Assembly: GCA_017415185.1 (NCBI GenBank)
Contig: JAFQHZ010000009.1
Coordinates: forward strand, 9,979-73,978
Length of the DNA: 64,000 nt
Reading direction: 5' to 3'
From: Candidatus Gastranaerophilales bacterium
GTDB lineage: Bacteria > Cyanobacteriota > Vampirovibrionia > Gastranaerophilales > Gastranaerophilaceae
Positions within the stretch are counted from its first letter, which is position 1; every line of letters begins with the position of its first letter. The position numbers and the translations under genes are program-made. The notes below the pieces were generated by a model. The model saw nothing but the letters and a program-made list of their open reading frames with translations, was not told where the DNA came from and searched no databases. Below are positions 7,306 to 55,197 of the stretch, piece by piece.

Positions 7306-7322
7306 CTGTCGTTTATATATAA

Positions 7323-7403
7323 TGCTGACGGGGAGACTCGAACTCCCACAGCTCTCGCCACATGCACCTCAAGCATGCGTGTCTACCATTCCACCACGTC
7401 AGC
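7323..7403 (-). tRNA. tRNA-Leu (anticodon GAG), class II with long variable arm
   Basis: The minus strand reads GCTGACGTGGTGGAATGGTAGACACGCATGCTTGAGGTGCATGTGGCGAGAGCTGTGGGAGTTCGAGTCTCCCCGTCAGCA. The 7-bp acceptor stem is GCTGACG/CGTCAGC. The anticodon stem is CATGC/GCATG with loop TTGAGGT, giving anticodon GAG. A long variable arm and a GTTCGAGTC T-loop are present. CCA is not encoded. Confidence 0.85.
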
Positions 7404-7407
7404 ATAA

Positions 7408-7666
7408 TACCGCACTATACCTATCGTCAAAATAACAATAGCCCTACGATTAAAAAACCTCCTAAATAAATCTCTATACCCACAAACTCGACCTTAGAGC
7501 TGCTATGTTTCCATCCTGACTCGGTTGGGGTGAATTTATGCCATAAAGACCTAAATCATCAACGATTTTCGAATTTTCAAACTACGATTAAATTTGCCTC
7601 ATAGTATACTCTGCACCCGACATAAGCTTTCGGTCAAGAGGATGCAACCCCCCGTGAAGTGCGGCA
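7408..7666 (-). ncRNA. ffs: signal recognition particle RNA, long (Alu-domain-containing) form; ends approximate
   Basis: The minus strand at 7520-7499 reads GUCAGGAUGGAAACAUAGCAGC. This is the SRP domain IV signature: GUCAGG, then helix AUG-GAAA(GNRA)-CAU, then AGCAGC. A terminal helix closes the molecule at about 255 nt by pairing CCGCACU (7664-7658) with AGUGCGG (7416-7410). The region is locally GC-enriched and has no ORF. Confidence 0.7.
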
Positions 7667-15388: not shown

Positions 15389-16519
15389 CTAATTTTTAAA
15401 AGTTATCGCATCTGGATTAAGTGCTAACCATCTATAAGAATCTCCTTCAACTTCCGGCATTTCCATAATAAATATTCCACCCAATTTTCCCCTTTGGGAA
15501 ACCAAATGTCCACTTTGGAATAAATCGAATAATGCTCTTCGAATTGTATTTGGACTAACATTTAAAATTGTAGCAAGCTCTCTTATTGGGGCGATTTTGT
15601 CCCCTGCTTCATAATTTTCAACAATATATTTCTTTAAATGCGTTAGTGCTTTTTGCCAAGCATAGGTAAAATTTTGATTTGGAGTAATTTTTCTTCTTTC
15701 AGAACTTACAAAATCAAGCTTGGAGCTTTGGTTTCCGCCAATATATATTGTTCCGTATCTTCCTCTTCTTGAAAGCACAATCTTTTTAGCATTCAAAACT
15801 TTCATTGCGTCGTTGACTGTTTTAATGCTAACATCAAACATTCTTGAAAAAGAAGAATTCGGGAGTATTTTTTCTCCATTTTTATATGTTTTTTCAATAT
15901 ATTTTTGAATTTTTTCAACTAATTGATGAGTTAGAGTGAAATTTTCATCCACTAAGCCGTTTTGAATTTCAACATTTGACAAACTAAATTCTTTTTTATA
16001 AATCCAAGAATATTTATTTCCTTTTAAATGGACTTTTTCCAAATATCCTTTTTGCGCAAGGTTTACAAGCGCAAATCTAATTGTATTTTGTGAAATATTT
16101 GTTCTAAAGGCTAATTGAGCAATCGCAGGAATTGGTTTGCCAAGTTCAATTTTGTCATCCAAAACAATCTTTTTAATTTTGCATTCTGTAATTGTTGAAT
16201 GGCATAATTCATCCTGTGCTTTTATATCATTCGAATAAAAATCAGCAATACAAGTTCCCAAAGATTGCTTAGAAACAAAATATCCTAAATCTTTCGCTTG
16301 ACGAATTGAATTTTGAACCGTCGCAGGAGAAACATCTAGATATTTTGCTAATTCTTCTTTTGTTGGAATAAAATCGCCAATATCGGCAATGCCAATTTCA
16401 AGAGAATATTTTATCCAATTAATTAACCAATTGGTCACCAATTGACCTTTTGGCACTTTTTTTGAAGCATCAAAATCAGGTTTAGATATTTTTATATCAT
16501 CCAGAGTCAAATGTTTCAT
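15389..16519 (-). CDS. transcriptional regulator composed of four tandem GntR-type winged-HTH domains
   Basis: There are four repeats of the GntR-like pattern (P)s..eLA..l.VS..Tv..Al..L...G.l....g.G.f. They read ELAKYLDVSPATVQNSIRQAKDLGYFVSKQSLGT, QLAFRTNISQNTIRFALVNLAQKGYLEKVHLKG, FSRMFDVSIKTVNDAMKVLNAKKIVLSRRGRYGT and ELATILNVSPNTIRRALFDLFQSGHLVSQRGKLGG. Confidence 0.65.
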   Translation of the reverse strand: MKHLTLDDIKISKPDFDASKKVPKGQLVTNWLINWIKYSLEIGIADIGDFIPTKEELAKYLDVSPATVQNSIRQAKDLGYFVSKQSLGTCIADFYSNDIKAQDELCHSTITECKIKKIVLDDKIELGKPIPAIAQLAFRTNISQNTIRFALVNLAQKGYLEKVHLKGNKYSWIYKKEFSLSNVEIQNGLVDENFTLTHQLVEKIQKYIEKTYKNGEKILPNSSFSRMFDVSIKTVNDAMKVLNAKKIVLSRRGRYGTIYIGGNQSSKLDFVSSERRKITPNQNFTYAWQKALTHLKKYIVENYEAGDKIAPIRELATILNVSPNTIRRALFDLFQSGHLVSQRGKLGGIFIMEMPEVEGDSYRWLALNPDAITFKN

Positions 16520-40703: not shown

Positions 40704-42281
40704 ATGAAAGAAAATATGAAAAACAAAAAATATATTATTGCACTCACCTTTTTAATATTGTTTTTAAGTTGTCAAAATGTTTTTGCCATTGAAGAAGAGC
40801 AAGGTCAAATAAATAAAAAACCAAAATTTTCTTTTTTCAAAAAAAAGACAACAAACACCACAACCAAAAAGAAAAAAAGCAAAGTTGAAGAGATAAAATT
40901 GCCAGAAGTTTTAGAAGGAAAACCTAAAATTCCTTTTAACCAGCTTTCAACAATGACAATCGACGATTGCGTTGAATATGCAATTAATCACAATCCAAAT
41001 TTGTCAGTTTCTTCTGAAAGAATTAAAGCCGCAAAATCGGGCATTGGACAAGCTCGCTCAAGCTATGCTCCAAGATTAACAGCAAGAGTTAGCTATAATC
41101 ACAACGACACCAAAGCAACAAATTTACATACAAACCAAGATAGCGGCGGTTTCAGCGTTGGAATTTCTGAAATGATTTGGGATTTTGGACGCACAACAGC
41201 CAAAATTAATATGGCAAAATATGATACTGAATCTGCTACTTATGATTATGATTATGATGTTTTAAATGTTGTTTATAATGTTAGAATCAATTATTTTAAA
41301 GTACTTCAAGCGCTAGCCCATCTTGATATTTACGAACAAAACGTTAGAATCCAAACACTGAATCAAGAGCGCACGCAAGCAATGTTTGACGAGGGTTTAA
41401 AATCTAAAATTGATGTTGTAAATGCGCAAGTTAATTTAACAGATGCCAAGATTCAACTTGTCGAAGGGCAAAACACGCTTCAAACCGCTTTAATCAACCT
41501 TAAAAACTCAATGTTTTATCAAGAGGACAAGCCTTTCATAGTTAAAAACACTGAAAATTTCAACTTTTTAAAATCTGACTATAAGAAAAAAGTCGAAAGT
41601 TTGACAACAATTAAGCCTAGCGTTGATGTTGTGAAAAAAAATGAAGATGGCTTAATTATGCTCACATCAGGAATTGAGCACAAAGATATTATTCAAAACT
41701 TTGAATTTCAGCCAATGCTAATCACGAAAAAAGAAGCAGTTGAACAAGCGCTTGAACTTCGTCCTGATTTAAAATCAAACGAAATGCTCGCAAATCTTCA
41801 AGAAGAAAGCTTGAAAGCTATTAAAAAACAATATGCTCCAGAACTAAGCGCAGACTTGTCTTGGGGATATACAAAATACGATAGCCGTTATTCAAGCCCA
41901 TTGCAGCTTGGTGCAAGCTTAGGGTTAGGCTCAATTAATCCTATGAACATTCATTATCAAGTTAAAGAAGGCGAAAGTATGCTTGATATAGCACATCATA
42001 ATGTTAATATCGCAAAAACTGATATTTTTTGGGAAGTTCAAACTAATTATGTTAATATGCGCCAGCTAGAGCGAAAAATTCCTTTAATGAATATGAAAGT
42101 TAAAGCAACGCTTGAAAACTTCGAACTCGCAGATGGAAGATATAGCGTTGGTTTAAATAATTATGTTGAATTACAAGATGCACTAACTAACTACAACAAT
42201 TCACAGTTGAATTTTGTAGAAGCTGTGTTTAATTATAATGTAGCAAGAGAAACCTTATTAAAATCAATGGGGGTTAAATGA
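40704..42281 (+). CDS. TolC-family outer-membrane efflux protein
   Basis: It has a signal peptide and a two-fold repeat of OEP-type helices (NP.L......I..A......A.....P). It is the first gene of the efflux operon. Confidence 0.8.
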   Translation: MKENMKNKKYIIALTFLILFLSCQNVFAIEEEQGQINKKPKFSFFKKKTTNTTTKKKKSKVEEIKLPEVLEGKPKIPFNQLSTMTIDDCVEYAINHNPNLSVSSERIKAAKSGIGQARSSYAPRLTARVSYNHNDTKATNLHTNQDSGGFSVGISEMIWDFGRTTAKINMAKYDTESATYDYDYDVLNVVYNVRINYFKVLQALAHLDIYEQNVRIQTLNQERTQAMFDEGLKSKIDVVNAQVNLTDAKIQLVEGQNTLQTALINLKNSMFYQEDKPFIVKNTENFNFLKSDYKKKVESLTTIKPSVDVVKKNEDGLIMLTSGIEHKDIIQNFEFQPMLITKKEAVEQALELRPDLKSNEMLANLQEESLKAIKKQYAPELSADLSWGYTKYDSRYSSPLQLGASLGLGSINPMNIHYQVKEGESMLDIAHHNVNIAKTDIFWEVQTNYVNMRQLERKIPLMNMKVKATLENFELADGRYSVGLNNYVELQDALTNYNNSQLNFVEAVFNYNVARETLLKSMGVK

Positions 42282-43420
42282 AAAAACGATATATAATTGG
42301 AGTTATTATTTCAAGTTTCATATTATTGTTATTAATGACTTTTGTAAAAAATGGCTCAATAAATTACACAACAAAACCAGTCGCAAAAGCAACAATAACA
42401 CAACAAGTTGAAGCTTCTGGTTCTATAAAACCAATAAACACCGTTGCCGTTGGTACGCAAGTTTCAGGAACAGTTCAAAAAATTTATGTCGATTATAATT
42501 CAACTGTAAAAAAAGGCGATTTATTAGCAGAACTTGACCCAAGTTTATTTCAAGCAAATGTTGATCAATCTCAGGCTAAGTTAAACAATGCAAAAGCAAC
42601 TCTGGCTCGCACGCAAGCAATGCTTAATTATAAAAAAAATAACTATCAAAGATATAAACACCTTTATGAAAAACATTACGTTTCAAGAGACGATGTCGAA
42701 CTAGCTCAAGCAAACTATTTACAAGCTCGCGCAGAGCTTGAATCTGCTAATGCAGATGTTAATGCAACAAAAGCTGCACTAGAAAACAATTTAACCAATT
42801 TAAGATATTCGAAAATCACATCTCCTGTTGATGGAACAGTTATATCAAGAGCGGTTGACGAAGGTCAAACTGTTGCCGCAAGCTTCAATACTCCAACATT
42901 GTTTGAAATTGCAAAAGACTTAACAAAAATGCAAATCGAAACAAGCGTATCAGAAGCAGATATTGGAAAAATCAAAGTAGGTCAAGAAGCCTCATATACC
43001 CTTGATGGATATCAAGACAAAAAATTCTACGGTAAAGTGACACAAGTTCGTCTTGCTTCAACTACAACAAACAATGTTGTAACTTATACGGTTATAATTT
43101 CTGTTGATAATTCAGAAGGCTTTATAATTCCTGGAATGACTGCAAACGTTTCAATTAAAGTTGGCGAAGCCAAAGACGTTTTGTGCGTTGAAAATAGAGC
43201 ATTTAAATTTTCAATGGATGACACTAAAAAATATGAAAAACAAGGCGTTTGGGTTTTAACTTCGTCAGGTCCAAAAAGATTCAATGTTGAAATAGGTTTG
43301 TCGGATGATAATAAATCTCAGATTATTTCAAACGAAATAAAAGAAGGAGATAAAATCATCATTTCATCAGGCTCAAACAAAAAGAAACAACAAACAAAAC
43401 CAATGGGCAGACCATTTTAA
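42278..43420 (+). CDS. HlyD/MacA-type periplasmic adaptor (membrane fusion) protein
   Basis: It has an N-terminal anchor, a lipoyl/barrel-sandwich motif (V.GTV..I.VD.NS.VKKGD.LAELDP), a coiled-coil hairpin and a beta-barrel domain. Confidence 0.85.
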   Translation: MKKRYIIGVIISSFILLLLMTFVKNGSINYTTKPVAKATITQQVEASGSIKPINTVAVGTQVSGTVQKIYVDYNSTVKKGDLLAELDPSLFQANVDQSQAKLNNAKATLARTQAMLNYKKNNYQRYKHLYEKHYVSRDDVELAQANYLQARAELESANADVNATKAALENNLTNLRYSKITSPVDGTVISRAVDEGQTVAASFNTPTLFEIAKDLTKMQIETSVSEADIGKIKVGQEASYTLDGYQDKKFYGKVTQVRLASTTTNNVVTYTVIISVDNSEGFIIPGMTANVSIKVGEAKDVLCVENRAFKFSMDDTKKYEKQGVWVLTSSGPKRFNVEIGLSDDNKSQIISNEIKEGDKIIISSGSNKKKQQTKPMGRPF

Positions 43421-43443
43421 TAAACTCAATCAAAAGAGGAAAT

Positions 43444-44160
43444 ATGGCATTAATCAAGGTTAAAAACGCAATAAGAACATATCAAATGGGCGATGAAACA
43501 TTTTACGCCTTAAACGATGTCTCTTTTGAAATTGAAGAAGGCGAATTTGTTGCAATAATGGGAACTTCAGGCTCTGGAAAATCAACCTGTATGAATATGC
43601 TAGGAACGCTTGATAAACCAACTAGCGGAGAATATTATCTTGATGGAGCAGATGTTTTTTCTCTTTCAAGCGATGAATTATCCGAAATAAGAAACAATAA
43701 AATTGGCTTTGTTTTTCAAGGATTCAACTTAATTTCAAGAACTTCAGCAATTGATAATGTTTGTTTGCCAATGATATATAAAGGTTTAAGCGAAGAAGAA
43801 AGATATAAGAAAGCAAGAGAAGCACTGAAAATTGTGGGTTTAGAAAATAAAGAAAACAACATGCCTTCTCAAATGTCTGGCGGTCAACAGCAAAGGGTTG
43901 CAATCGCAAGGGCAATTGTTAATGATGCACCTTTAATTTTAGCAGACGAACCAACAGGAAATTTAGACACCAAAACAAGCATTGACGTTATGGAATTTTT
44001 TGTTAATTTGAATAAAAAATTTGGAAAAACTGTCGTTTTGGTAACTCACGAGCCCGATATTGCACAATATACAAAAAGAATAATCCGCTTTAAAGACGGC
44101 AAAATTGTTTCCGATTTATCCAAAGAAGAATGGGAAAAACAAAGAAACAGGCAAACATAA
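43444..44160 (+). CDS. ABC transporter ATP-binding protein (MacB/LolD-like)
   Basis: Walker A is GTSGSGKST, the signature is MSGGQQQRVAIARA and Walker B is ILADEPTGNLD. Confidence 0.9.
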   Translation: MALIKVKNAIRTYQMGDETFYALNDVSFEIEEGEFVAIMGTSGSGKSTCMNMLGTLDKPTSGEYYLDGADVFSLSSDELSEIRNNKIGFVFQGFNLISRTSAIDNVCLPMIYKGLSEEERYKKAREALKIVGLENKENNMPSQMSGGQQQRVAIARAIVNDAPLILADEPTGNLDTKTSIDVMEFFVNLNKKFGKTVVLVTHEPDIAQYTKRIIRFKDGKIVSDLSKEEWEKQRNRQT

Positions 44161-44173
44161 TAAAAAGGACAAA

Positions 44174-44584
44174 ATGGAAAAAATTTTAGAAATTTATTTA
44201 ATTGCAACAAACACCATTGCGCTTGTTTCGCTCATTGGCTTTATAATATTAATTTCAACTAAAATTTCACAAAAAAATCCTTTTAGGGTTGCAAGCTGGC
44301 TTATTTTAATTGTCACATTAATTGGAATGTATTTATATATTCCTTCTAGGCTTTTTATTTCAGGCATAATTAATCAGAATATTAATCATTTAAAGACCGC
44401 AATTAAATTTTCAATTAATCCAGTCGAAAAAAGACTTTGCGAAGAATATATAAAAAACATTCAAAATAAATATATAAGTCCTGAAATATATAAAAAGATT
44501 GATAAACTTAAAAAAATGGATTTATTATTTTTCGAAATTCAAAACACTTATAATTTAAAAATGGAAAAATTAAGGAAAAATTAA
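44174..44584 (+). CDS. small hypothetical membrane protein inserted between the ABC ATPase and permease genes
   Basis: Starting from ATG 44174 it is 136 aa, with two hydrophobic helices and then a Lys-rich tail. Its stop overlaps the permease start (TAATG). Confidence 0.45.
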   Translation: MEKILEIYLIATNTIALVSLIGFIILISTKISQKNPFRVASWLILIVTLIGMYLYIPSRLFISGIINQNINHLKTAIKFSINPVEKRLCEEYIKNIQNKYISPEIYKKIDKLKKMDLLFFEIQNTYNLKMEKLRKN

Positions 44585-45810
44585 TGATAGATTATAAATC
44601 AACATTGCAAATTGCGCTTAATTCTCTAAAAGTTAATAAAATGCGCTCTGCACTAACTTCATTAGGCATTATTATTGGCGTTGCAGCAGTTATTATCATG
44701 CTTGCAATTGGTTCTGGCGCAAACAAACAAGTCCAAGAAAATATGGAATCAATGGGTTCTAATCTTTTAACAATTCGTTCCGCTACTGCTAAAACTGGCG
44801 GGGTTTCAATGGGAATGGGAACAAAGCCAACTCTTAGCGTTAAAGACGCAATTGCAATCAAAAGACAAGCACGAGGAGTTGAAGCAGTTGCTCCTGTTTT
44901 GAATTCTTCAAAACAAGTTATGTATGGGAATCAAAACTGGTCTACAACAGTTTATGGCGTTGACACAGCATACTTATACGCAAAAAATTATGAAATTAAT
45001 TTAGGCAAAAGTTTCAATAGAGACGATGACAATAATGCAGCAAAAGTTGCACTAATCGGAAAAACTATTGAAACTGAGCTTTTTGGAGACGTTAATCCTA
45101 TCGGAAAAACTATCCGCATTGGAAATGTTCCTTTTAAAGTTCTTGGAACATTAAAATCTAAAGGACAAATGGGAGCAATGGACCAAGACGATTTAATTTT
45201 TATACCCATTACAACGGCGCAAAGAAAAGTTTTTGGAACAGATTTCCCAGGGGCAGTCAGCCAAATTATAGTTAAAGCAAAATCAATTGAAGATTCCGCA
45301 ATTGCACAAAAAGATATCGAAGAAATTTTGAGACGTCGTCATAATCTTGGCAAAGCGCAACCTAACGATTTTCAAATTAGAAACAGCGCAGAATTTCAAG
45401 AAAAAATGAAATCAACAGTTCAAACTTTTGCAATTTTATTGGCTTCAATTGCTTCTGTTTCTTTGATTGTTGGAGGAATTGGCATTATGAATATCATGCT
45501 TGTTTCTGTAACCGAGAGAACAAAAGAAATTGGAATTAGGATGGCAATTGGTGCAAGAGCGGTTGATATAAGAACTCAATTTTTAATCGAAGCTCTTGTT
45601 CTTTCACTGTTAGGAGGCTTAATTGGAGTAATAGTTGGAATTATAATTGCCATTTTGATAGGCAAAATTTTTGCAACTTCAATCGTTATTTCCGCTTTTC
45701 CAATATTTTTGTCTTTTGGTTTTTCGGGACTTGTTGGAATCGGATTTGGCTATTATCCAGCTTATAAAGCAAGCTTATTAAACCCAATTGATGCTTTAAG
45801 ATATGAATAA
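44584..45810 (+). CDS. ABC transporter permease, MacB periplasmic-core + FtsX domain
   Basis: It has an N-terminal TM helix, a large periplasmic domain and a C-terminal FtsX-type 3-TM bundle (ERTKEIGIRMAIGA). Confidence 0.88.
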   Translation: MIDYKSTLQIALNSLKVNKMRSALTSLGIIIGVAAVIIMLAIGSGANKQVQENMESMGSNLLTIRSATAKTGGVSMGMGTKPTLSVKDAIAIKRQARGVEAVAPVLNSSKQVMYGNQNWSTTVYGVDTAYLYAKNYEINLGKSFNRDDDNNAAKVALIGKTIETELFGDVNPIGKTIRIGNVPFKVLGTLKSKGQMGAMDQDDLIFIPITTAQRKVFGTDFPGAVSQIIVKAKSIEDSAIAQKDIEEILRRRHNLGKAQPNDFQIRNSAEFQEKMKSTVQTFAILLASIASVSLIVGGIGIMNIMLVSVTERTKEIGIRMAIGARAVDIRTQFLIEALVLSLLGGLIGVIVGIIIAILIGKIFATSIVISAFPIFLSFGFSGLVGIGFGYYPAYKASLLNPIDALRYE

Positions 45811-47631
45811 ATTTTTTATTCTATCTTTGATTGTTGGTTTGTAGCCTTCGATTATTTTTAGGATTTCATTTTGGTTTGGAATATTTTTGGCATAGATGTT
45901 GTGGAGTTTGTTGCCTAGTTGTTTTATTCTTTCGTCATTGAAGATATTGGGTTGTTTTTGAGTGTTGTTTATTTCATCTGATATCATTTGTTTTATTTTA
46001 TCTTCATTGAGAGATTCTAGGGTTTTTATTATTTCAAGATATATTATTTTAGAATATTTCTTTTCTATGATTTCTTGTATTTTTTCTTTTGGTGTATTTG
46101 TGTAATATAGTTTGAAGTATTTTAGGTAGGCTTGGTAAAGGTGGAGTCTAGTATCTGTATTTTTAGAACTAGATTGAACACAACAAGCTCCTATGATAAC
46201 ATTGAGGAATTTTTTAATGTATTTTTTGTTGTTGAGGAGGATGGCGCAAAGAAAGCCTAAATAATTTTCTTTCAAATTAGTTTGAAAAAAATCACTCGAA
46301 GGCAATTCAAAAACAATATACTTATATAAATCCAATATTTCTTCAATTGTTTCATTTTCAATTTTTTGATTTTTTGAACAAAAAATATTTTGAATTTTCC
46401 TTTCATAATAAAATTTCTTCTCACTTAACATTATTGGATTTGAAAATTCATTTGCATAAATTGAAACTGTTGGAAATCCAAGAAAAGAACAATTTCTGAT
46501 ATAAATGTCATCAGTGTGCCTTAAGACAAGTTTAGCTAGGTTATTAAACATTGTTTTATTGTCTATTTCTTCATTGAATAGCCAAGTACCTTTGCTAAAT
46601 TCATAATCTGGTTTATTTGTTAGGATTTTTTTAATATGTTGGTTTGTTTTTTTGAGGAATCTTTCATTACGAAACTGATTTGTTATTATTTTCCTTAACG
46701 TAATTTGCTCAGCACTTGCAATATACCTTGCACATTTTCTATATTTTTCAAATTCACTATTACCTTGCAAAAATTCAGTTAAGCTTCGTTCTAGTGCAAT
46801 TGGGAAATATGGATGAGCACCAAATTTGAATACTACTCCATTTTTAGGGCAAATCTTATCTTCAAATATTGCACATATTGCTGGAAAATTATTGTCTAAT
46901 GAAGCGTCTTTAAGTGTTACGCCATATCCTAGGTTTTCTATTTCTTTAATTAATCCCATGATATTTTCATATTGTTCATAGTATTCTTTTGGAATATTTG
47001 GCATTGATATTTTTTTAACAAAGATTTGCTTAGCGCAATATCTTTCAATAACTTCACTTAATCCTTGAACGGAAGCTTCTTCAAATGTATTACCTGCAGC
47101 GAAGCCATTTGAGCCTTGAATACACATTTTTAAAAAAGAAGGAAAATATCTTATGCTTCTAGTTTTATAGGACAAAAAAGGAACAAAAATTATTCTTATT
47201 TGATTAGCCTCATTTATATTTTTTAAAGAAAAAATTTCTTCCGCAAGTTTTGATACCTCAAATCCTTCTTTAACTATTAAATTATTTTCTTGAATAATTT
47301 TTTTAAACCTATTGTCTCGCAAGCTGAATTTTTCGATTTTTTCGTCAGCGGCATAACAAAATTTTTCACCATTAAACTGAATTAACAACCCTGTCTGCAT
47401 TCTTTCTATAAATTCTGCATGAGCACTAGCAACAGCATTAACAAAACAAGAGCCTTTACCATTTGCTCTAATATTTTTATCGAAGTTTTTAATTTTCAAA
47501 ACAACACAAAAATGACTTTGCCCAGATTCAACATCTATAATTTCTATTTCAATACCAAGTTTATCAAGGATTTTCTTGATTCTTTTTACTGTGTTTTCAG
47601 GTGTTTCATCTTTTCTTATGCTATATTCCAT
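45796..47631 (-). CDS. YcaO-superfamily protein, stand-alone E. coli-like type, paralog A (611 aa)
   Basis: The motif ANGKGSCFVNAVASAHAEFIERMQT and the motif SNGFAAGNTFEEASVQGLSEVIERY match the YcaO ATP/Mg-binding signatures. It has a long helical C-terminal half. Confidence 0.8.
   Translation of the reverse strand: MEYSIRKDETPENTVKRIKKILDKLGIEIEIIDVESGQSHFCVVLKIKNFDKNIRANGKGSCFVNAVASAHAEFIERMQTGLLIQFNGEKFCYAADEKIEKFSLRDNRFKKIIQENNLIVKEGFEVSKLAEEIFSLKNINEANQIRIIFVPFLSYKTRSIRYFPSFLKMCIQGSNGFAAGNTFEEASVQGLSEVIERYCAKQIFVKKISMPNIPKEYYEQYENIMGLIKEIENLGYGVTLKDASLDNNFPAICAIFEDKICPKNGVVFKFGAHPYFPIALERSLTEFLQGNSEFEKYRKCARYIASAEQITLRKIITNQFRNERFLKKTNQHIKKILTNKPDYEFSKGTWLFNEEIDNKTMFNNLAKLVLRHTDDIYIRNCSFLGFPTVSIYANEFSNPIMLSEKKFYYERKIQNIFCSKNQKIENETIEEILDLYKYIVFELPSSDFFQTNLKENYLGFLCAILLNNKKYIKKFLNVIIGACCVQSSSKNTDTRLHLYQAYLKYFKLYYTNTPKEKIQEIIEKKYSKIIYLEIIKTLESLNEDKIKQMISDEINNTQKQPNIFNDERIKQLGNKLHNIYAKNIPNQNEILKIIEGYKPTIKDRIKNLFIS
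45812..46242. repeat. ~431-bp near-identical direct repeat (copy 1; partner at 52254-52684)
   Basis: By eye the two copies align without gaps at a constant offset of 6442 bp, with only scattered mismatches. The repeat covers the C-terminal ~145 codons of YcaO paralogs A and D. Confidence 0.85.
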
Positions 47632-47634
47632 TTG

Positions 47635-49506
47635 TTACCTATTTGTGGTGAATATGTTTTTTATTCTATCTTTGATTGTCGGTTTGTAGCCTTCGATTAT
47701 TTTTAGGATTTCATTTTGGTTTGGGATATTTTTGGCGTAGATGTTGTGGAGTTTGTTGCCTAGTTGTTTTATTCTTTCGTCGTATTCAAAACCTTGGCTT
47801 TTAAAATCTTTTCTTGTATCGCCGCCTTCTTTTTTATTTATTAAATTCGTTTGAAAAATTTTTTCAATTTTTTCAAAAGATAACGTTTCTAAAAAATTTT
47901 CTATTTCAAAATATATTATTTTAGAATATTTCTTTTCTATGATTTCTTGTATTTTTTCTTTTGGTGTATTTGTGTAATATAGTTTGAAGTATTTTAGGTA
48001 GGCTTGGTAGAGGTGGAGCATAGCGTCCATTTTTTTATTTTGAGAACGCATACAATAAATCGCAATAAGACCTTTTAAAAATTTTTTAACATATTTTTTC
48101 TTATCTAACAAAACCGAACATAAAAATCCAAAATGATAATCTAATACATCCAAACCAGAAACGGCTAACGGCTCAGAAAAAACAATATATTTAAAATATT
48201 CAAATAATTCTTCAAGTTCCAAATTAAAATCAATTTTATTCTTAAAACAAGTTTTGCATTTATAATAATTTGTTAATGTTTCAATATAATTTTGTTTAAC
48301 TACAAGCGGATTTGAAAATTCTCCAGCATAAATTGCAACTGTTGGAAATCCAAGAAAAGAATAATTTCTAATGTAAATATCATCAGTATATTCTAAAATC
48401 TTTTTAGATAATTTATTAAATAATTTTTTATTAGTTAAATTTTCATTACGCAGCCAAGTATTTTCATCAAATTCATAATCAGGAACACTATTTATATTTT
48501 TTTTGATTATTTTATTTTCTTTTTTTATATAATTTTTTTGGCAAAACTGTTCAGCTACCATTTTTCCTGCAGACGTACTATATATACTATGCAAATATTT
48601 TGCTTTTTCTCGAAATTCACTAAAACGCTCTACTCCTTGTAAAAATTCAGTCAAAGTTCGCTCAATTGCAATTTGCAAATATGGATGTGCGCCAAAACGC
48701 ACCAAGTAACCATTTTTTTTATATAGCTTATCTTCCATAAACGCACAAGCTGCACATAGACCTTCTCCTAATGATGCATCCTTTAAAATTACCTTATAGC
48801 CTAATTTTTCTATTTCTTTAATTAATCCTATGATATTTTCATATTGTTCATAGTATTCTTTTGGAATATTTGGCATTGATATTTTATTAATAAATACTTG
48901 TTTGCAGCAATACCTTTCTATTATTTCACTCAGCGCTTGCGTGCAAGCTTCTTCGAATGTGTTTCCTGCGGCATGTCCATTTGAATTTTGCAAAAAATGT
49001 ATTAAAAGCATAGGCAAATATTCAATTTTTTTATTTTTATACGAAACTAATGGAACAACGGGGGTCTGATTTTGTTTAATTTTAGACAACGAATCCAAAT
49101 AAAATTTTAAATCAACGCTTTGAACAATTTTATTAAAATCATACAAAGCAATATTTAAGGACTCTAAATGATTTGAAAATAAAGTATTTTTGAGAAAATC
49201 AACATCTAAAATCTTTTCATCAGGATCAAATTTGAATTTATCTCCAAAAAAAGGAAGTAGAAAATGGGTTTGCAAATATTCAATAAATTCCGCATATCCA
49301 CTTGCCAAAGAATTTTCATAACTTGTTCCTTTGCCTGTTGTTTCAATATTTTCTTTGCAATTTTTTATTTTTACAGCAACCGAAAAATACTTTTCGCCAC
49401 TTCCAATGTTTGAAACTTCTGTCTCAATCCCGCATTTTTCCAATTTTTCTTTTATCTTTTTAACAGTTTTTTTAGGTTTTTCGTCTTTTTTAATACTGTA
49501 TTTCAT
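47635..49506 (-). CDS. YcaO-superfamily protein, paralog B (623 aa)
   Basis: It has TGKGTSYENSLASGYAEFIEYLQT and SNGHAAGNTFEEACTQALSEIIERY. A 3-nt gap separates it from paralog A. Confidence 0.8.
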   Translation of the reverse strand: MKYSIKKDEKPKKTVKKIKEKLEKCGIETEVSNIGSGEKYFSVAVKIKNCKENIETTGKGTSYENSLASGYAEFIEYLQTHFLLPFFGDKFKFDPDEKILDVDFLKNTLFSNHLESLNIALYDFNKIVQSVDLKFYLDSLSKIKQNQTPVVPLVSYKNKKIEYLPMLLIHFLQNSNGHAAGNTFEEACTQALSEIIERYCCKQVFINKISMPNIPKEYYEQYENIIGLIKEIEKLGYKVILKDASLGEGLCAACAFMEDKLYKKNGYLVRFGAHPYLQIAIERTLTEFLQGVERFSEFREKAKYLHSIYSTSAGKMVAEQFCQKNYIKKENKIIKKNINSVPDYEFDENTWLRNENLTNKKLFNKLSKKILEYTDDIYIRNYSFLGFPTVAIYAGEFSNPLVVKQNYIETLTNYYKCKTCFKNKIDFNLELEELFEYFKYIVFSEPLAVSGLDVLDYHFGFLCSVLLDKKKYVKKFLKGLIAIYCMRSQNKKMDAMLHLYQAYLKYFKLYYTNTPKEKIQEIIEKKYSKIIYFEIENFLETLSFEKIEKIFQTNLINKKEGGDTRKDFKSQGFEYDERIKQLGNKLHNIYAKNIPNQNEILKIIEGYKPTIKDRIKNIFTTNR

Positions 49507-49514
49507 AAAATAAC

Positions 49515-51353
49515 CTATCTGGCAAATTTCTTTATTATTTTGTCTTTCAAACTAATTTTATAGTCATCAAACATTTCGAGTAATACTTTTTGTTTTGGAA
49601 TATTTTTTTCATACATTAAAGTAAGTTTTTTGCCTATTTTTTCAAGCTCAACATCTTTGGATGCTTCCAGAACAGGCGCAATTTTTTTTATTTCTTCTTC
49701 TATTTTCTCTTTTATTTTATCTTCATTGAGGGATTCTAGGGTTTTTATTATTTCAAGATATATTATTTTAGAATATTTCTTTTCTATGATTTCTTGTATT
49801 TTTTCTTTTGGTGTATTTGTGTAATATAGTTTGAAGTATTTTAGGTAGGCTTGATAAAGATGTAAAGTGGTGTCAGTTATTTTAGATTGAGAATAAATAC
49901 AAAGCGTTCCAATTATTGCATTTGCAAACTTTTTAATATACTTTTTATTTTGCAAAAAAACCGCACAAAGAAAACCGAAATAATGAAACTCTGTTTTTTC
50001 AAAATAACTTGTAATCAATGGTCTTTCAAAAATAACGAATTTAAAAATTTCAAATAACTCTTCTATTCCATTATTTTTTATTTCCTCTTTTGTAAATCTC
50101 ATAAACTGATGATATTTTTTTAATTTTTTAAAATAATTTTTGTCTATTATCAAAGGGTTAGAAAATTCTCCAGCATAAATAGCAACTGTTGGAAATCCAA
50201 GAAAAGAATAATTTCTGATATAAATATCATCAGTGTGTTTTAAAACAAGTTTAGCTAAATTATTAAACATTACTTTGTTGCTAACATCTTCATCAAACAA
50301 CCAATTATTTTTATCAAACTTATATTTGCAATTATCAGATAAAATTTTTTCTATTGTTTTGTTTGTTCTTTTAAAAAATCTTTTTTTATAAACTTGCTCT
50401 GCTAAAATTTTTTTCGTTGTTGAACTATAAATACTATGAATATACTTTGCATGTTTTCTAAACTCTTCAAATTGATTATTCCCTTGCAAAAATTCAGTTA
50501 ATGTTCTCTCAAGAGCAATTGGAAAATATGGATGAGTACCAAATCTAAAAGTTACTCCATTTTTTAAATTTTTTAAATCTTCAACTATAACGCAAACTGT
50601 TGGAAAATTTTTACCCAAAGAAGCATCTTTCAGAATTACCTTATAACCTAATTTTTCTATTTCTTTAATTAATCCTATGATATTTTCATATTGTTCATAG
50701 TATTCTTTTGGAATATTTGGCATTGATATTTTATTTAAAAAAACTTGTTTATAACAATATCTTTCAACAATCTCGCTTAGCCCCTGAAGTGAGGCTTCTT
50801 CAAACGTATTACCTGCCGCAAGGCCAGTACTGCCTTGTAAAAATTGCGCCAAAAATAATGAAATATCGATGATTTTTTTTTGTTTATATGAAGCAAAAGG
50901 AATAATAGGCAGATTATCAGTTCCTAATTTTTCAAAAATTAATGGATTATATTTAATTTTTGAAAACATAATTGCTTTATAAGCGTTCTCGATCGATATA
51001 CCTTTTTTTTTAAATTCTTTTATAACAATTTCTTCATTATTTGAATGAATATTAATAATTTTTTCATCAGGAGCAGAACAAAATTTTTCTTCATGAAATG
51101 GAATCAAAAAATTAGTCTGCAATCTTTCCATAAATTCAGCATAACCACTTGCAAGCGCATTAATTGGACAAGAGCCTTTGCCATTTGTGCCTATTTTTTC
51201 ATTAACATTTTTCAAATGAACATATGCGGACAAAGAATATTTTTCACAACCAGTCTCCACAACAGCAGTTTCAATACCATTCTTTTTCAGAATTTTCTGT
51301 ATTCTTTTAACAGTATTTTCAGGCTTATCGTCTTTTTTGATACTATACTGCAT
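49515..51353 (-). CDS. YcaO-superfamily protein, paralog C (612 aa)
   Basis: It has TNGKGSCPINALASGYAEFMERLQT and STGLAAGNTFEEASLQGLSEIVERY. An 8-nt gap separates it from paralog B. Confidence 0.8.
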   Translation of the reverse strand: MQYSIKKDDKPENTVKRIQKILKKNGIETAVVETGCEKYSLSAYVHLKNVNEKIGTNGKGSCPINALASGYAEFMERLQTNFLIPFHEEKFCSAPDEKIINIHSNNEEIVIKEFKKKGISIENAYKAIMFSKIKYNPLIFEKLGTDNLPIIPFASYKQKKIIDISLFLAQFLQGSTGLAAGNTFEEASLQGLSEIVERYCYKQVFLNKISMPNIPKEYYEQYENIIGLIKEIEKLGYKVILKDASLGKNFPTVCVIVEDLKNLKNGVTFRFGTHPYFPIALERTLTEFLQGNNQFEEFRKHAKYIHSIYSSTTKKILAEQVYKKRFFKRTNKTIEKILSDNCKYKFDKNNWLFDEDVSNKVMFNNLAKLVLKHTDDIYIRNYSFLGFPTVAIYAGEFSNPLIIDKNYFKKLKKYHQFMRFTKEEIKNNGIEELFEIFKFVIFERPLITSYFEKTEFHYFGFLCAVFLQNKKYIKKFANAIIGTLCIYSQSKITDTTLHLYQAYLKYFKLYYTNTPKEKIQEIIEKKYSKIIYLEIIKTLESLNEDKIKEKIEEEIKKIAPVLEASKDVELEKIGKKLTLMYEKNIPKQKVLLEMFDDYKISLKDKIIKKFAR

Positions 51354-51375
51354 GGCATTCCTCAGTATATAGTCA

Positions 51376-52206
51376 TTAATTTACTAATTTGAATATTTGA
51401 TTACAGATATTGAATGTTTTTTCACAACTATCTAATGGTAACATGTTATCGCCATCGCAAAGAGCATGTTCTGGGTCTGGGTGAATTTCAAAAAATAAAA
51501 CTTTCGCACCAGCCGCAACAGCAGATTTCGCCAAAAGTTCAACAAATCTTCTCTCACCCGAGGAAGAACCACCATGTCCACCCGGAATTTGCACACTATG
51601 CGTCGCATCAAAACACATTGGATATCCCAAATCTTCTTGAGTTATTGCAACAGAGCGCATATCAACAACAAGGTTATTATAGCCAAAGCTTGTTCCTCTA
51701 TCGGTGATTATAATTTTATCATTTCCAGAATCAGAAACTTTTTTTGCTATTGATTTCATTTGATATGGCGACAAAAATTGTCCTTTTTTAATATTAACAA
51801 TTTTTCCAGTTTTAGCTGCTGCAACCAATAAATCTGTTTGTCTGCATAAAAAAGCCGGAATTTGAATTATATCAGCAACTTTTGCAGTGGGTTCTGCTTG
51901 CCAAGATTCGTGGATATCAGTAACTATTGGAACATTTAATTCTTTTTTAACTCGTGCTAAAATTTCAAGCCCTTCTTCCATGCCCAAACCACGATATGAA
52001 TCCAAAGAAGAACGATTGGCCTTATCGAAAGAAGTTTTAAAAACAAAATTAATATCTAAACGTTCACAAATTTCTTTTAATTTTTTAGCGGTTTTTAATG
52101 ATATTTCCTCTGATTCCATAGCGCAAGGACCCGCTAAAATTGTTAATTTATCCCCTGCAATTTCAAAATTGTTTAATTCTATTGTTTTCATAAGAATATT
52201 ATACAA
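51376..52206 (-). CDS. kdsA: 3-deoxy-8-phosphooctulonate (KDO-8-P) synthase
   Basis: It has the KdsA signatures LAGPCAMESEE and FKTSFDKANRSS and is 276 aa. It is embedded in the YcaO array on the same strand. Confidence 0.92.
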   Translation of the reverse strand: MYNILMKTIELNNFEIAGDKLTILAGPCAMESEEISLKTAKKLKEICERLDINFVFKTSFDKANRSSLDSYRGLGMEEGLEILARVKKELNVPIVTDIHESWQAEPTAKVADIIQIPAFLCRQTDLLVAAAKTGKIVNIKKGQFLSPYQMKSIAKKVSDSGNDKIIITDRGTSFGYNNLVVDMRSVAITQEDLGYPMCFDATHSVQIPGGHGGSSSGERRFVELLAKSAVAAGAKVLFFEIHPDPEHALCDGDNMLPLDSCEKTFNICNQIFKLVN

Positions 52207-52240
52207 TAATTAATCAAAATAAAAAAGAAAAACGCTTAAA

Positions 52241-54064
52241 TTATTGGAATATGTTTTTTATTCTATCTTTGATTGTTGGTTTGTAGCCTTCGATTATTTT
52301 TAGAATTTCATTTTGGTTTGGAATGTTTTTGGCGTAGATGTTATGGAGTTTATTGCCTAGTTGTTTTATTCTTTCGTCGTTGAAGATGTTGGGTTGTTTT
52401 TGGGTGTTGTTTATTTCGTCTGATATCATTTGTTTTATTTTATCTTCATTGAGGGATTCTAGGGTTTTTATTATTTCAAGATATATTATTTTAGAATATT
52501 TCTTTTCTATGATTTCTTGTATTTTTTCTTTTGGTGTATTTGTGTAGTATAGTTTGAAGTATTTTAGGTAGGCTTGGTAGAGGTGGAGTCTAGTATCTGT
52601 ATTTTTAGAACTAGATTGAACACAACAAGCTCCTATGATAACATTAAGGAATTTTTTGATGTATTTTTTGTTGTTGAGGAGGATAGAAGCGTAAAAGCCC
52701 AAAGAATAGTCTTTTATTTCAGAAAAATATGCATTTCCTGACAATCTTTCAAAACCTGCAAATTTACAAGCCTCAAACACGTCAAAAATTAAAAAATCTT
52801 GGATAGTTTTTCTATATCTATACATTTTTTTCATTTTTTTAAAAATATCATTAGAATACACCATAGGATCAGAAAATTCATATGCATAAATTGAAACTGT
52901 TGGAAATCCAAGAAAAGAACAATTTCTGATATAAATGTCGTCAGTGTGCTTTAAGACAAGTTTAGCTAGGTTATTAAACATTGTTTTGTTGTCTATTTCT
53001 TCATTGAATAGCCAAGTATCTTTGTTAAATTCATAATCTGGTTTATTTGTTAGGATTTTTTTAATATGTTGATTTGTTTTTTTGAGGAATTTTCTCTTTT
53101 TTAATTGTTCAATAATAATTTTTGGAACAGAAACGCAATTAATATTGTGTAAATATTTTGCTTTTTTTCTATATTCATCAAAACCACTATTACCTTGCAA
53201 AAATTCAGTCAAGCTACGCTCTAGCGCAATTGGGAAATATGGATGAGCACCAAATTTGAATACTACTCCATTTTTAGGGTAAATTTTGTCTTCAAATATT
53301 GCACATATTACTGGGAAATTGTTGCCTAATGATGCATCTTTAAGTGTTACGCTATATCCTAAGTTTTCTATTTCCTTAATTAATCCTATGATATTTTCAT
53401 ATTGTTCATAGTATTCTTTTGGAATATTTGGCATTGATATTTTTTTAACAAAGATTTGCTTGGCACAATATCTTTCAATAACTTCACTCAACCCTTGAAC
53501 AGAAGCTTCTTCAAATGTATTACCAGCAGCGAAGCCATTTGAGCATTGAAGAAATCTTTGCAATAATAAGGGAATATATTCGATTTTTTTATTTTTATAC
53601 GAAACAAAAGGCGCAGTAAAAGTTTTATTTTCATCTACTTTATCAAACGCTCCTTCGCAAGATTTTGAGCGAGCCAATTTGGAAATTTCAAATATTTCTT
53701 CAATATTTGTATTAAATTTTTTTAAATGAATATTTAAAGAATTATCACAAAGATTTTTTATATTTTCAATTTTTTCATCAGATTCAAAATTAAATTTCTC
53801 CCCACAAAAAGGAATAAGAAAATTCGTCTGCAATCTTTCCATAAATTCAGCATAGCCACTGGCAAGACAATTAATTTCATTCGCACCCTTGCCATTTGCA
53901 TTAATATCATTATCAAAATCACGAAACTTAATAACAGAAGAAGAATGAAATTCGCCAGTTTCAAGTCTAGCGACTTCAGTATAAACTCCATATTTATCAA
54001 GAATCTTTTTTATTCTTTTAACAGTGTTTTCTGGTGTTTCGTCTTTTTTTATACTGTATTTCAT
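52241..54064 (-). CDS. YcaO-superfamily protein, paralog D (607 aa)
   Basis: It has ANGKGANEINCLASGYAEFMERLQT and SNGFAAGNTFEEASVQGLSEVIERY. It is the first gene of the co-directional array. Confidence 0.8.
   Translation of the reverse strand: MKYSIKKDETPENTVKRIKKILDKYGVYTEVARLETGEFHSSSVIKFRDFDNDINANGKGANEINCLASGYAEFMERLQTNFLIPFCGEKFNFESDEKIENIKNLCDNSLNIHLKKFNTNIEEIFEISKLARSKSCEGAFDKVDENKTFTAPFVSYKNKKIEYIPLLLQRFLQCSNGFAAGNTFEEASVQGLSEVIERYCAKQIFVKKISMPNIPKEYYEQYENIIGLIKEIENLGYSVTLKDASLGNNFPVICAIFEDKIYPKNGVVFKFGAHPYFPIALERSLTEFLQGNSGFDEYRKKAKYLHNINCVSVPKIIIEQLKKRKFLKKTNQHIKKILTNKPDYEFNKDTWLFNEEIDNKTMFNNLAKLVLKHTDDIYIRNCSFLGFPTVSIYAYEFSDPMVYSNDIFKKMKKMYRYRKTIQDFLIFDVFEACKFAGFERLSGNAYFSEIKDYSLGFYASILLNNKKYIKKFLNVIIGACCVQSSSKNTDTRLHLYQAYLKYFKLYYTNTPKEKIQEIIEKKYSKIIYLEIIKTLESLNEDKIKQMISDEINNTQKQPNIFNDERIKQLGNKLHNIYAKNIPNQNEILKIIEGYKPTIKDRIKNIFQ
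52254..52684. repeat. ~431-bp near-identical direct repeat (copy 2; partner at 45812-46242)
   Basis: See copy 1. Further A/D near-identical blocks lie at about 46441-46660 / 52871-53090 and about 46760-47140 / 53190-53570. Confidence 0.85.
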
Positions 54065-54138
54065 AATTGTTAAGTTATATAGTTTTACACAATTTTATTA
54101 TATAATATTTATTGGAGCAAGAAAAGCGAGGAAAAATT

Positions 54139-55197
54139 ATGTGTGCAGCACCAATTGATGAAAAAGAATTGCAAGCCATTCAAGAAGGCAAAAATAAAGC
54201 GTTAAAATTAGCTTTAGATAAAATTGAAAAAGATTTCGGCAAAGGCTCAATTATGCGTCTTGGCGATAAAACAAGTGTTGATTGCGAATGCATTCCAACA
54301 GGAGCATTGGCGCTCGATATCGCTCTTGGCATAGGCGGTGTTCCTAGAGGAAGAATTATTGAAATTTATGGACCTGAAGCTTCTGGTAAAACCACTCTTG
54401 CTCAACATATTGTTGCAAATGCACAAAAAAAGGGTGGAATTGCAGCATATATTGACGCAGAACACGCACTAGACCCAGAATATGCAAGAAATCTTGGTGT
54501 AGATATTGACCAATTGTTAATTTCACAACCCGACACAGGAGAACAAGCTCTTGAAATCGCAGAAGAATTAGTTCGCTCAGGCGCAATTGACGTTGTTGTT
54601 GTGGATTCTGTTGCGGCATTAGTTCCAAAAGCAGAAATCGAAAAAGCAATGGACGAACAACAAATGGGGCTTCAAGCTCGTTTAATGTCTAAAGGCTTAA
54701 GAAAACTAACCGCAATCGTTGCAAAAACCAATACAACAGTGATTTTCATTAACCAATTAAGACAAAAAATCGGCATTATGTTTGGAAATCCTGAAACAAC
54801 AACAGGCGGACAAGCATTAAAATATTATTCTTCCGTGCGTTTAGACATAAGAAGATGTGACAGCGTTAAAAACAAAGATAACGAAGATATTGGAAACAGA
54901 GTTCGTGTAAAAGTTGCAAAAAACAAAGTAGCTCCTCCATTCAAAGTTTGCGAATTTGATATTATTTATGGAAAAGGCATTTGCGCATTAGGCAATATTA
55001 TTGATGTTGCAGTTAATTACAACATTATCAAAAAAGCAGGTGCTTGGTTTAGCTATAACGATGAAAAACTTGGACAAGGAAGAGAAAAAGCAAAAGAATT
55101 TTTAGAACAAAATACTGAAATTCTTGCTGAAATCGAAACAAAAGTTAGAGAAAAAATAGCAAAGAAAAATCAACCAATTCAAGAGGAAGAAAAATAA
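54139..55197 (+). CDS. recA: recombinase RecA
   Basis: It has Walker [12 protein letters not shown] and family-wide conservation. The start is set to ATG 54139, behind a GCGAGGA RBS, rather than the TTG at 54112. Confidence 0.95.

Follow-up and report, generated by a model that had tools for sequence, protein, structure and literature searches.

The window analysed here, a 64-kb stretch of a metagenome-assembled gut Candidatus Gastranaerophilales bacterium (non-photosynthetic Cyanobacteria / Melainabacteria), carries on its minus strand, at 45796-54064, a string of five open reading frames (ORFs) in the order Y4-kdsA-Y3-Y2-Y1. Four of them, Y1 to Y4, encode paralogous proteins of the YcaO superfamily, whose members carry out ATP-dependent activation of a peptide backbone amide. 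An initial annotation, made from the letters alone, had placed four minus-strand ORFs of 611, 623, 612 and 607 amino acids (aa) at these positions, where we find them, and had read them as a tandem array with gaps of 3-35 nt. Four YcaO paralogs do stand in one string, but kdsA lies between copies 3 and 4, and the gap range holds only when kdsA is counted as one of the genes (34, 22, 8 and 3 nt along the string from Y4 to Y1). The five genes are:

45796..47631, minus strand: Y1, YcaO paralog, 611 aa (PF02624 E 4e-42; TIGR00702 127 bits against a cut-off of 75.65)
47635..49506, minus strand: Y2, YcaO paralog, 623 aa (Pfam, TIGR00702; identical to database protein P0004)
49515..51353, minus strand: Y3, YcaO paralog, 612 aa (Pfam, TIGR00702; identical to database protein P0003)
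51376..52206, minus strand: kdsA (3-deoxy-8-phosphooctulonate synthase, KDO-8-P synthase), 276-aa ORF (NF003543, TIGR01362, DAHP_synth_1)
52241..54064, minus strand: Y4, YcaO paralog, 607 aa (Pfam, TIGR00702, AlphaFold2 model, Foldseek)

Four YcaO paralogs and their active sites

All four paralogs match PF02624 at 133-145 bits (cut-off 25.7; E 1e-38 to 4e-42) and TIGR00702 at 125-140 bits (cut-off 75.65), bearing out the superfamily membership first proposed from two motifs, and Y1 is identical to database protein P0002 ('MAG: YcaO-like family protein [Candidatus Gastranaerophilales bacterium]'). A phmmer search of PDB sequences places E. coli YcaO first (E 1.4e-32, residues 11-293), followed by MJ1094, TruD, LynD and MusD. 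When E. coli ycaO (L095, 586 aa) is aligned within a 65-member family alignment, its K9, S16, S71, E75, E78 and N187 align with K7, T14, S69, E73, E76 and N182 of Y4, and its E199, E202, R203, R286 and E290 with E194, E197, R198, R283 and E287. These positions, reportedly the E. coli ATP/Mg ligands (Dunbar et al. 2014, for all but E202), are identical in Y4 and E. coli except for a conservative change of S16 to T, and are invariant across Y1-Y4 and in all 65 members of the family alignment. E202A serves as the inactive control for E. coli YcaO (PMC13063428). The two motifs do correspond to the ATP/Mg-binding signature, with ligands intact in all four proteins; both blocks occur in every paralog, although the N-terminal one had been transcribed imprecisely, since Y2 reads TTGKG, and Y2 and Y4 read SLAS and CLAS. 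Y1-Y4 are YcaO-superfamily proteins with an intact ATP/Mg site and, from their conserved ligands, are predicted to be catalytically competent.

In each paralog a YcaO domain stands between an N-terminal lead-in and a wholly helical C-terminal domain (C-domain). An AlphaFold2 (AF2) model of Y4 made on the 65-member alignment (predicted local distance difference test score (pLDDT) 90.7, predicted template-modelling score (pTM) 0.91) was compared with the PDB by Foldseek; the best 16 matches are all chains of E. coli YcaO (4Q84, 4Q85, 4Q86; best E ~1e-23, 555-649 aligned columns), and the 40 matches with E <=0.001 are without exception YcaO-domain proteins (E. coli YcaO, LynD, TruD, MJ1094, M. 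kandleri YcaO, MusD and McbD). The lead-in of Y4 (residues 1-79, 53828-54064) has an alpha-beta-beta-beta-alpha topology and weak Foldseek matches to double-stranded RNA (dsRNA)-binding domains (Loquacious, Staufen, TRBP; E 0.1-0.9, target TM-score <=0.69). Its likeness to dsRNA-binding domains or to CARF is probably just topological, because its final helix bears the S69/E73/E76 ATP-binding motif. We also considered and rejected a defence-system reading, for which PADLOC gave just two marginal CARF matches (E 8.5e-4 and 5.6e-3) in the N-terminal 75-108 residues.

The full-length alignment of Y4 spans ~580 of the 583 residues of 4Q86, and the C-terminal half is helical, as had been proposed, but hhalign detected no sequence homology of it to the tetratricopeptide repeat (TPR) domain of E. 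coli YcaO (probability 0.1 for the clade C-domain profile against the E. coli C-domain), and Foldseek of the C-domain gave no specific structural match to that domain. An AF2 model of the C-domain by itself (pLDDT 86, twelve helices) finds no PDB match with E <0.38, and E. coli YcaO is absent among the 50 matches listed; the weak matches are to generic TPR-like repeats such as SMYD2/3, sNASP and HOP/Sti1. A phmmer search of 1.84 billion cluster representatives with the C-domain returned 12 proteins, of which 11 are YcaO-like members of this clade, whole or fragmentary, and at the level of sequence the C-domain appears to be effectively confined to the clade. The Pro-rich C-terminus said to be missing is indeed absent from all four paralogs, whose C-termini read ...KDRIKNIF(Q).

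An alternative reading is that the array is an assembly artefact, or consists of decaying duplicates of one gene, and three features of the data lean that way: the source is a metagenome-assembled genome (MAG), exact repeats are common to the paralogs, and one other assembly (L002) ends inside Y3 at a block shared among them. Yet L002 has no mismatch to the window in 14,940 nt, and a further record (L001) covers all of the string, recA and macB included, and differs at 4 of 20,977 nt; these second assemblies, ERZ28655125 and ERZ27256787, come from different sample accessions and give 99.98% and 100% identity. Pairwise protein identity among Y1-Y4 is 53-71%, which excludes collapsed or expanded reads of a single gene, the longest exact repeats among them are no longer than 122 nt, and similar arrays occur in other species. 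Because independent assemblies agree, the paralogs are this divergent and the repeats this short, an artefact is practically excluded. Decay is contradicted by four intact frames, by catalytic residues kept in every copy and by cores with low ratios of non-synonymous to synonymous substitution (dN/dS) that are under purifying selection, in agreement with the earlier statement that no copy looks to be decaying; artefact and decay are both effectively refuted.

Copy number and mosaic divergence at the recA-macB site

The string lies between two sets of conserved genes:

54065..54138: divergent intergenic region, AT-rich, 74 nt (sequence read; from Y4 to the probable recA ATG at 54139)
54112..55197, plus strand: recA, divergent from Y4 (Pfam RecA E 2e-136; flank kept in relatives)
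40704..45810, plus strand: efflux operon comprising a TolC-like outer-membrane protein, an HlyD-type adaptor, an ABC ATPase, a 159-aa unknown ORF and a MacB-type permease

Y4, the first gene of the string, is divergent from recA, after which comes dnaK, and Y1, the last, overlaps the convergent macB permease gene by 15 nt at its 3' end; the efflux operon converges on Y1, with synteny kept in L001, L002, L003 and L011. The ORF finder starts recA at a TTG (54112), but translation more likely begins at the ATG at 54139, which follows GAGGAAAAA and gives the 352 aa annotated in L001; the spacer shared with Y4 thereby widens to 74 nt. This region is the presumed promoter of the string, within which a consensus scan found no convincing terminator, and it is plausible that the five genes form a single transcription unit read from the recA-proximal side; Rfam and tRNA scans gave nothing relevant near the YcaO locus. 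For kdsA (NF003543 398.5 bits, cut-off 242; TIGR01362 384 bits; a Pfam DAHP_synth_1 match), the true start is probably the ATG at 52191, giving a 271-aa product, the length annotated in L001, L003, L091 and L092. Between the ABC ATPase and permease genes, an ORF of 136-159 aa (44105-44584, plus strand) has hydrophobic stretches and no Pfam match; it is kept in L001 and L002, and L003 has a helix-turn-helix (HTH) gene and ORFs of 73 and 87 aa in its place.

A survey of relatives, of the kind the initial annotation had called for, found synteny kept across five lineages and a YcaO copy number of 1 to at least 4. In L011, a GTDB representative MAG (BRZ_AG__bin62), the recA-macB interval holds kdsA and one YcaO gene, the positional counterpart of Y3, which sits immediately downstream of kdsA. 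L003/L004 read [YcaO]-kdsA-YcaO-YcaO and L092/L093 recA | YcaO-kdsA-YcaO-YcaO, with at least three copies each, and L091 reads YcaO-YcaO-kdsA-YcaO-YcaO, with at least four, two of them upstream of kdsA; the window has one copy upstream and three downstream. Copy number is thus dynamic at one fixed chromosomal site among close relatives. The initial annotation had called the stand-alone class normally single-copy; against this stand the sister species with several copies and a Prolixibacteraceae RiPP cluster (L020) with three related YcaOs. The second YcaO gene downstream of kdsA in L003 (L003:2991-4847) is annotated as 566 aa, starting at the GKG motif, and tblastn aligns the upstream 52 codons in the same frame; its start may have been lost by a stop codon or mutation, or the record may hold a sequencing error.

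The YcaOs evolve far faster than their neighbours: full-length proteins from different lineages are at most 57% identical, whereas kdsA is 85-91% identical across the five lineages, and RecA and MacB of the relatives are 93-98% and 89-94% identical to the window proteins. In phylogenetic trees Y1-Y4 and the single L011 copy form one group, and Y3 pairs with the L011 copy in the tree on residues 1-400. In a second species group both trees join P0008 and P0010, which are positional orthologues, across species; they also join P0009 with P0011, and P0012 with P0013, although these last two differ in place (second downstream copy in one array, first in the other). These pairings suggest that some paralogs there are old and retained. 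For the window lineage we leave two histories side by side, an independent expansion and an orthology erased by conversion.

The variable patches foreseen in the initial annotation are present, paralog divergence being concentrated in discrete blocks, and between these lie blocks that hardly differ:

52421..52546, minus strand: constant block, Y4 codons ~507-548 (exact shared tracts, windowed identity)
46013-46137 (Y1), 47911-48009 (Y2) and 49710-49853 (Y3), minus strand: homologues of this constant block
46958..47013, minus strand: second constant block, Y1 gene positions 619-674, codons ~207-225, peptide KISMPNIPKEYYEQYENI... (exact tracts)
53624..53767, minus strand: hypervariable block 1, Y4 residues 100-147 (paralogs 4-26% aa identity)
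53069..53179, minus strand: hypervariable block 2, Y4 residues 296-332 (Y1 versus Y4 43%, flanks 84-93%)
52685..52864, minus strand: hypervariable block 3, Y4 residues 401-460, at the start of the C-terminal helical domain (20-38% identity)

In windows of 20 codons, nucleotide identity within gene pairs is 35-50% at codons ~100-160, 300-320 and 400-460 and 96-100% in all pairs at codons ~500-540, set against 65-68% gene-wide for most pairs. Every paralog pair has exact tracts in common, 66-122 nt long near codons 500-540 and 56-89 nt long near codons 207-235; by our calculation the chance of 100 identical bases in genes ~66% identical is ~1e-18. Since exact tracts of 56-122 nt occur in genes that otherwise match at ~66% of positions, the constant blocks indicate gene conversion, as opposed to selection on the protein. 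Three of the four single-nucleotide polymorphisms (SNPs) between the window and L001 (~21 kb) fall in Y4, at 52547, 52580 and 53545, although Y4 makes up 8.7% of the compared length (P ~0.0025 by our binomial estimate). The alternative allele at each of these sites matches the base that Y1 has at the homologous position, and one of the SNPs changes Cys174 to Gly, the Y1 residue; conversion appears to be ongoing, with micro gene-conversion events segregating in the population.

Conserved regions have dN/dS of 0.19-0.37, with one comparison at 0.48 (Nei-Gojobori method, NG86), and the converted C-terminal third of Y1 versus Y4 gives 0.05 (dN 0.010, dS 0.211); these low values suggest that purifying selection maintains all four genes. 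In the hypervariable blocks dN/dS is ~0.15-1.2 with dS at least ~0.75, often >1 and saturated (NG86), and we accordingly make no claim of positive selection there. An entropy profile of 13 clade members is variable at residues 101-150, 291-330, 401-450, 481-490 and 541-570, and these clade-wide variable regions coincide with the least confident parts of the model: block 1 holds the lowest-confidence part of the YcaO-domain model (pLDDT 65 at residues 131-140), and within block 3 pLDDT is <50 at Y4 residues 444-448. Block 2 aligns with T317-L329 of E. coli YcaO, a segment that an AlphaFold3 model places at the interface with ribosomal protein uL16 (Rice et al., PMC13063428).

The position of the most homogenised tract (codons ~500-540, 96-100% nucleotide identity) within the C-domain raises the possibility that the paralogs assemble into hetero-oligomers, the gene-converted block preserving a common dimer interface and heterodimers offering combinatorial specificity. 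In E. coli YcaO a 150-residue TPR domain at the C-terminus mediates dimerisation, with no TfuA involved (PMC13063428), and the genes here are probably co-transcribed. The idea is nonetheless pure inference, no homology between this C-domain and the E. coli one can be demonstrated, and the paralogs of sister species lack identical shared blocks, so that homogenisation is no general requirement; we consider hetero-oligomers very unlikely.

Candidate substrates and chemistry

E. coli YcaO was formerly annotated as a RimO accessory factor for ribosomal protein S12. That connection, the only one known to the initial annotation for stand-alone YcaOs, has been superseded: E. coli YcaO installs a backbone thioamide at Met82 of uL16 (Rice et al., Biochemistry 2026, PMC13063428). 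It binds folded uL16 with nanomolar affinity over a broad, electrostatically complementary surface and does not process short peptides from the modified loop (PMC13063428), and it is a sulfide-using, partner-less stand-alone enzyme that recognises a folded protein encoded elsewhere (PMC13063428). Strong acidity (isoelectric point (pI) 4.4), complementing the basic uL16, marks the uL16-modifying YcaOs, which diverge slowly (high convergence ratio), whereas those linked to peptides that are made on the ribosome and modified after translation (RiPPs) diverge quickly (PMC13063428).

The four paralogs might then be redundant or condition-specific enzymes of the same kind, all of which thioamidate uL16 at its Met82 equivalent or assist RimO on S12: E. 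coli YcaO is their best match in sequence and structure, and, as in E. coli, the genes are unlinked to any substrate gene, here within a housekeeping string. Against NF040716, the E. coli YcaO equivalog family, however, Y1-Y4 reach 179-197 bits where the cut-off is 700, and the match covers only residues ~7-400, ending at profile position ~389-409 of 571. Their computed pI is 8.95-9.23, compared with 4.38 for E. coli YcaO. Among the 12 uL16-interface positions that Rice et al. mutated, ten align and two fall in gaps, in an alignment that is weak beyond residue ~300; eight of the ten are replaced (L55->D, F57->N, D88->F, R295->N, T317->V, D325->K, R444->G, F491->A), R79 is kept, and L329 is Q or a gap depending on the alignment table. 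Divergence to 57% identity or less alongside a well-conserved kdsA is likewise at odds with the slow divergence of uL16-type YcaOs, and the C-domain is without detectable homology to the E. coli TPR domain. With NF040716 below its cut-off, a basic pI, replaced interface residues and fast divergence, Y1-Y4 are not orthologues of the uL16-modifying enzyme. The label 'E. coli-type' is fair for their overall build, in which the chains of 4Q84, 4Q85 and 4Q86 lead the structural matches over ~580 columns, and unfair for orthology; a shared role on uL16 or S12 seems to us improbable.

A different possibility is that the paralogs are RiPP maturases, each tailoring a fast-evolving precursor (to a thioamide, amidine or azoline) encoded with the other pathway genes elsewhere in the genome. 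The neighbouring MacB/HlyD/TolC system might export the product. A pI of ~9 and fast divergence are traits that Rice et al. link to RiPP YcaOs grouping with E. coli YcaO, and a tripartite exporter adjoins the array. The neighbourhoods of relatives point the same way. The nearest homologues beyond the kdsA-linked subclade come from other Gastranaerophilales/Melainabacteria (~603 aa, 35-38% identity). In one such pair of loci (L008:1-9610 and L012:1-9611; other Gastranaerophilales / 'Cyanobacteria bacterium SIG29') a 603-aa YcaO stands with six tandem radical SAM paralogs. These are ~550-575 aa long, the L012 copies being 68-86% identical to the first complete L008 copy, and their array lies directly upstream of a 62-aa acidic ORF (MQENNQPKNNGSDD...FIVASKGIYGITLVI) and the YcaO gene; downstream of these come genes for an M50 peptidase, an aminotransferase, a TupA-like ATP-grasp protein and three SPASM/radical SAM proteins. 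From its gene content this locus looks like an uncharacterised RiPP-type cluster with a paralog array of its own. YcaO adjoins a TupA-like ATP-grasp gene in L013, L014 and L015 and lies within ~3 kb of one in L017, with radical SAM genes within a few kb in all four, and in L005 it adjoins uvrB and a TPR-protein gene. L020 (71-14996; a Prolixibacteraceae MAG) has three related YcaO genes (613, 570 and 503 aa) interleaved with two LanC-like, small radical SAM and NusG-like genes and a split LanB dehydratase; judged by these genes, it is a clear RiPP cluster of a multi-YcaO lanthipeptide type, with YcaOs related to the E. coli-type branch. Such neighbourhoods suggest that the wider family includes likely peptide-tailoring enzymes.

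The window itself speaks against RiPP maturation. Among essentially all of its ORFs of 120 aa or more, Pfam scans detected no gene for TfuA, an E1/ThiF-like protein, a dehydrogenase or a RiPP recognition element (RRE), upholding the earlier observation that no partner or substrate gene is nearby, and the 64 kb also hold no leader peptidase or other tailoring gene. The paralogs score 46-53 bits against TIGR03604 (azoline-forming, thiazole/oxazole-modified microcin (TOMM) type; cut-off 219). No precursor-like ORF was found inside or around the string or elsewhere in the window, which has no counterpart of the 62-aa acidic ORF and no tblastn match to the TupA-like ATP-grasp, radical SAM/SPASM or M50 genes of the distant relatives. 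Gaps in the string are 3-49 nt, too short to hold a small gene, and the longer intergenic stretches of the window are far from it. In at least five lineages the YcaO genes stand at a syntenic site in one string with the lipopolysaccharide (LPS) gene kdsA, unlike self-contained, sporadic clusters, and the sole nearby transport genes, those of the conserved MacB-type pump, are kept even where there is a single YcaO (L011). On balance we hold RiPP maturation to be somewhat unlikely.

The explanation we favour, at a probability of roughly 45%, is that the paralogs are specialised backbone-modifying enzymes with distinct, unlinked, gene-encoded substrates, probably folded proteins. The initial annotation had suggested several distinct substrates from the number of paralogs, which is plausible. 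The hypervariable blocks would form a substrate-recognition surface, giving every paralog a gene-encoded substrate of its own; in an AlphaFold3 model of E. coli YcaO, the segments aligned with two of these blocks are at the uL16 interface. The substrates would most likely be folded proteins (or peptides) encoded elsewhere in the genome. Folded proteins are favoured because neither of the stand-alone YcaOs known to modify proteins is linked to the gene of its substrate (E. coli-uL16, methanogen-McrA), because the string includes housekeeping gene content at a conserved chromosomal site and because a large helical domain is available for protein recognition. In the proposed reaction a nucleophile would attack the backbone carbonyl, followed by ATP-dependent O-phosphorylation and elimination of phosphate. 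The most likely product would be a backbone thioamide made from free sulfide, given the lack of a cyclodehydratase, dehydrogenase or TfuA partner and an anoxic, sulfide-containing gut host; an amidine or another product is possible. All five genes would probably be co-transcribed from the recA-proximal intergenic region.

Several points weigh against this explanation. Rapid divergence and a non-acidic pI are associated with RiPP-linked YcaOs (PMC13063428), and more distant relatives (31-38% identity) lie in RiPP-like neighbourhoods. The placing of blocks on the surface draws on a published AlphaFold3 model and on a sequence alignment to E. coli YcaO whose part past residue 300 is weak; with saturated dS, dN/dS in the blocks cannot separate positive selection from relaxed constraint; and the basic pI is partly compositional, the proteins of the window having a median pI of 7.7, with 31% above 8.9, in an AT-rich host. 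A more elaborate form, in which each paralog installs a thioamide (or a different amide-derived modification) on a cellular protein of its own and conversion between paralogs shuffles specificity cassettes around a fixed catalytic core and oligomerisation block, strikes us as doubtful.

To our knowledge, the YcaO protein substrates described so far number two, methanogen McrA and, as of 2026, uL16 of Pseudomonadota. Rice et al. expect further ones (PMC13063428). A literature search found no paper joining YcaO with Melainabacteria. The enzyme family, its fold and chemistry, and multi-copy YcaO loci elsewhere are already known; what the searchable literature does not describe is a subfamily of ~610-aa stand-alone basic YcaOs in a small Gastranaerophilales clade, distinguished further by 1 to at least 4 copies around kdsA and by concerted constant blocks beside hypervariable ones. 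The locus is a natural experiment, with four intact paralogs, one catalytic core, discrete variable patches and 1 to at least 4 copies in sisters, and lends itself to comparative searches for new YcaO substrates. Should every paralog have a separate target, enzymatic modification of the protein backbone would be broader than thought, the variable patches would reveal how stand-alone YcaOs recognise substrates, and gut Melainabacteria would possess an expandable backbone-modification system beyond McrA and uL16; this would also be the first functional lead for the YcaO class in uncultured gut Gastranaerophilales. If the substrates proved instead to be RiPP precursors from unlinked genes, the housekeeping genes here would surround an unusual biosynthetic system.

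Elsewhere in the window, 1494-7305 (plus strand) holds a complete type I restriction-modification system (hsdM, 521 aa; hsdS, 365 aa; hsdR, 1049 aa), and hsdR is followed by a gap that holds a tRNA-Leu(GAG) gene next to a small bacterial signal recognition particle (SRP) RNA (7322-7404 and 7462-7555, minus strand). A 376-aa protein at 15389-16519 (minus strand) has three winged-helix/HTH regions (residues ~50-85, 213-257 and 294-345) with matches to GntR, HTH_41 and HTH_11, an unusual multi-HTH regulator.

Comparison with known YcaO systems

The other YcaOs of Gastranaerophilales/Melainabacteria (P0015-P0025; L005, L008, L012-L017) resemble the window paralogs in lineage, in length (~603 aa) and in an identity of 35-38% that extends across almost the whole protein and includes the C-domain. 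Unlike the paralogs, they are single-copy per locus and not linked to kdsA, and most adjoin TupA-like ATP-grasp and radical SAM/SPASM genes (L008, L012-L015, L017). The YcaOs of RiPP clusters without an E1-like partner, such as the radical SAM + YcaO type of Bacteroidales and L020, are, like the paralogs, not acidic, divergent and sometimes multi-copy within a locus; those of L020 are 26-33% identical to Y4 over its first ~400 residues, and a radical SAM + YcaO cluster of Bacteroidales includes the amidine-forming ItfB (PMC10352776). Such clusters carry precursor, radical SAM, LanB/LanC or transporter genes in cis, whereas none of these accompanies the window paralogs as part of such a cluster.

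Methanogen YcaO, which thioamidates a glycine of McrA (TIGR03266; 6PEU, 6CI7), shares the YcaO domain with the paralogs, is stand-alone and modifies a protein whose gene lies elsewhere. Organisms in high-sulfide habitats tend to have thioamide-forming YcaOs that do not require TfuA and a ThiS-type carrier (PMC13063428). Methanogen YcaOs differ from the paralogs in their length of ~380-400 aa and in having no C-terminal helical domain, and the paralogs score 56-66 bits against TIGR03266, for which the cut-off is 365. The high-sulfide, TfuA-free rule covers methanogen YcaO too, and its gene is single-copy.

Among solved structures, E. coli YcaO (b0905; 4Q84/4Q85/4Q86) is the top match in sequence and also in fold, with the same ATP/Mg ligands, a similar length and domain order, and neither a partner protein nor a nearby substrate gene. 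Identity in the Foldseek alignments is nevertheless ~21%; the paralogs are basic, fall below the NF040716 cut-off, do not conserve the uL16-interface residues and have a C-domain without detectable homology to that of E. coli. Where E. coli has one stand-alone ycaO at its site, the window paralogs are multi-copy, fast-evolving and gene-converted.

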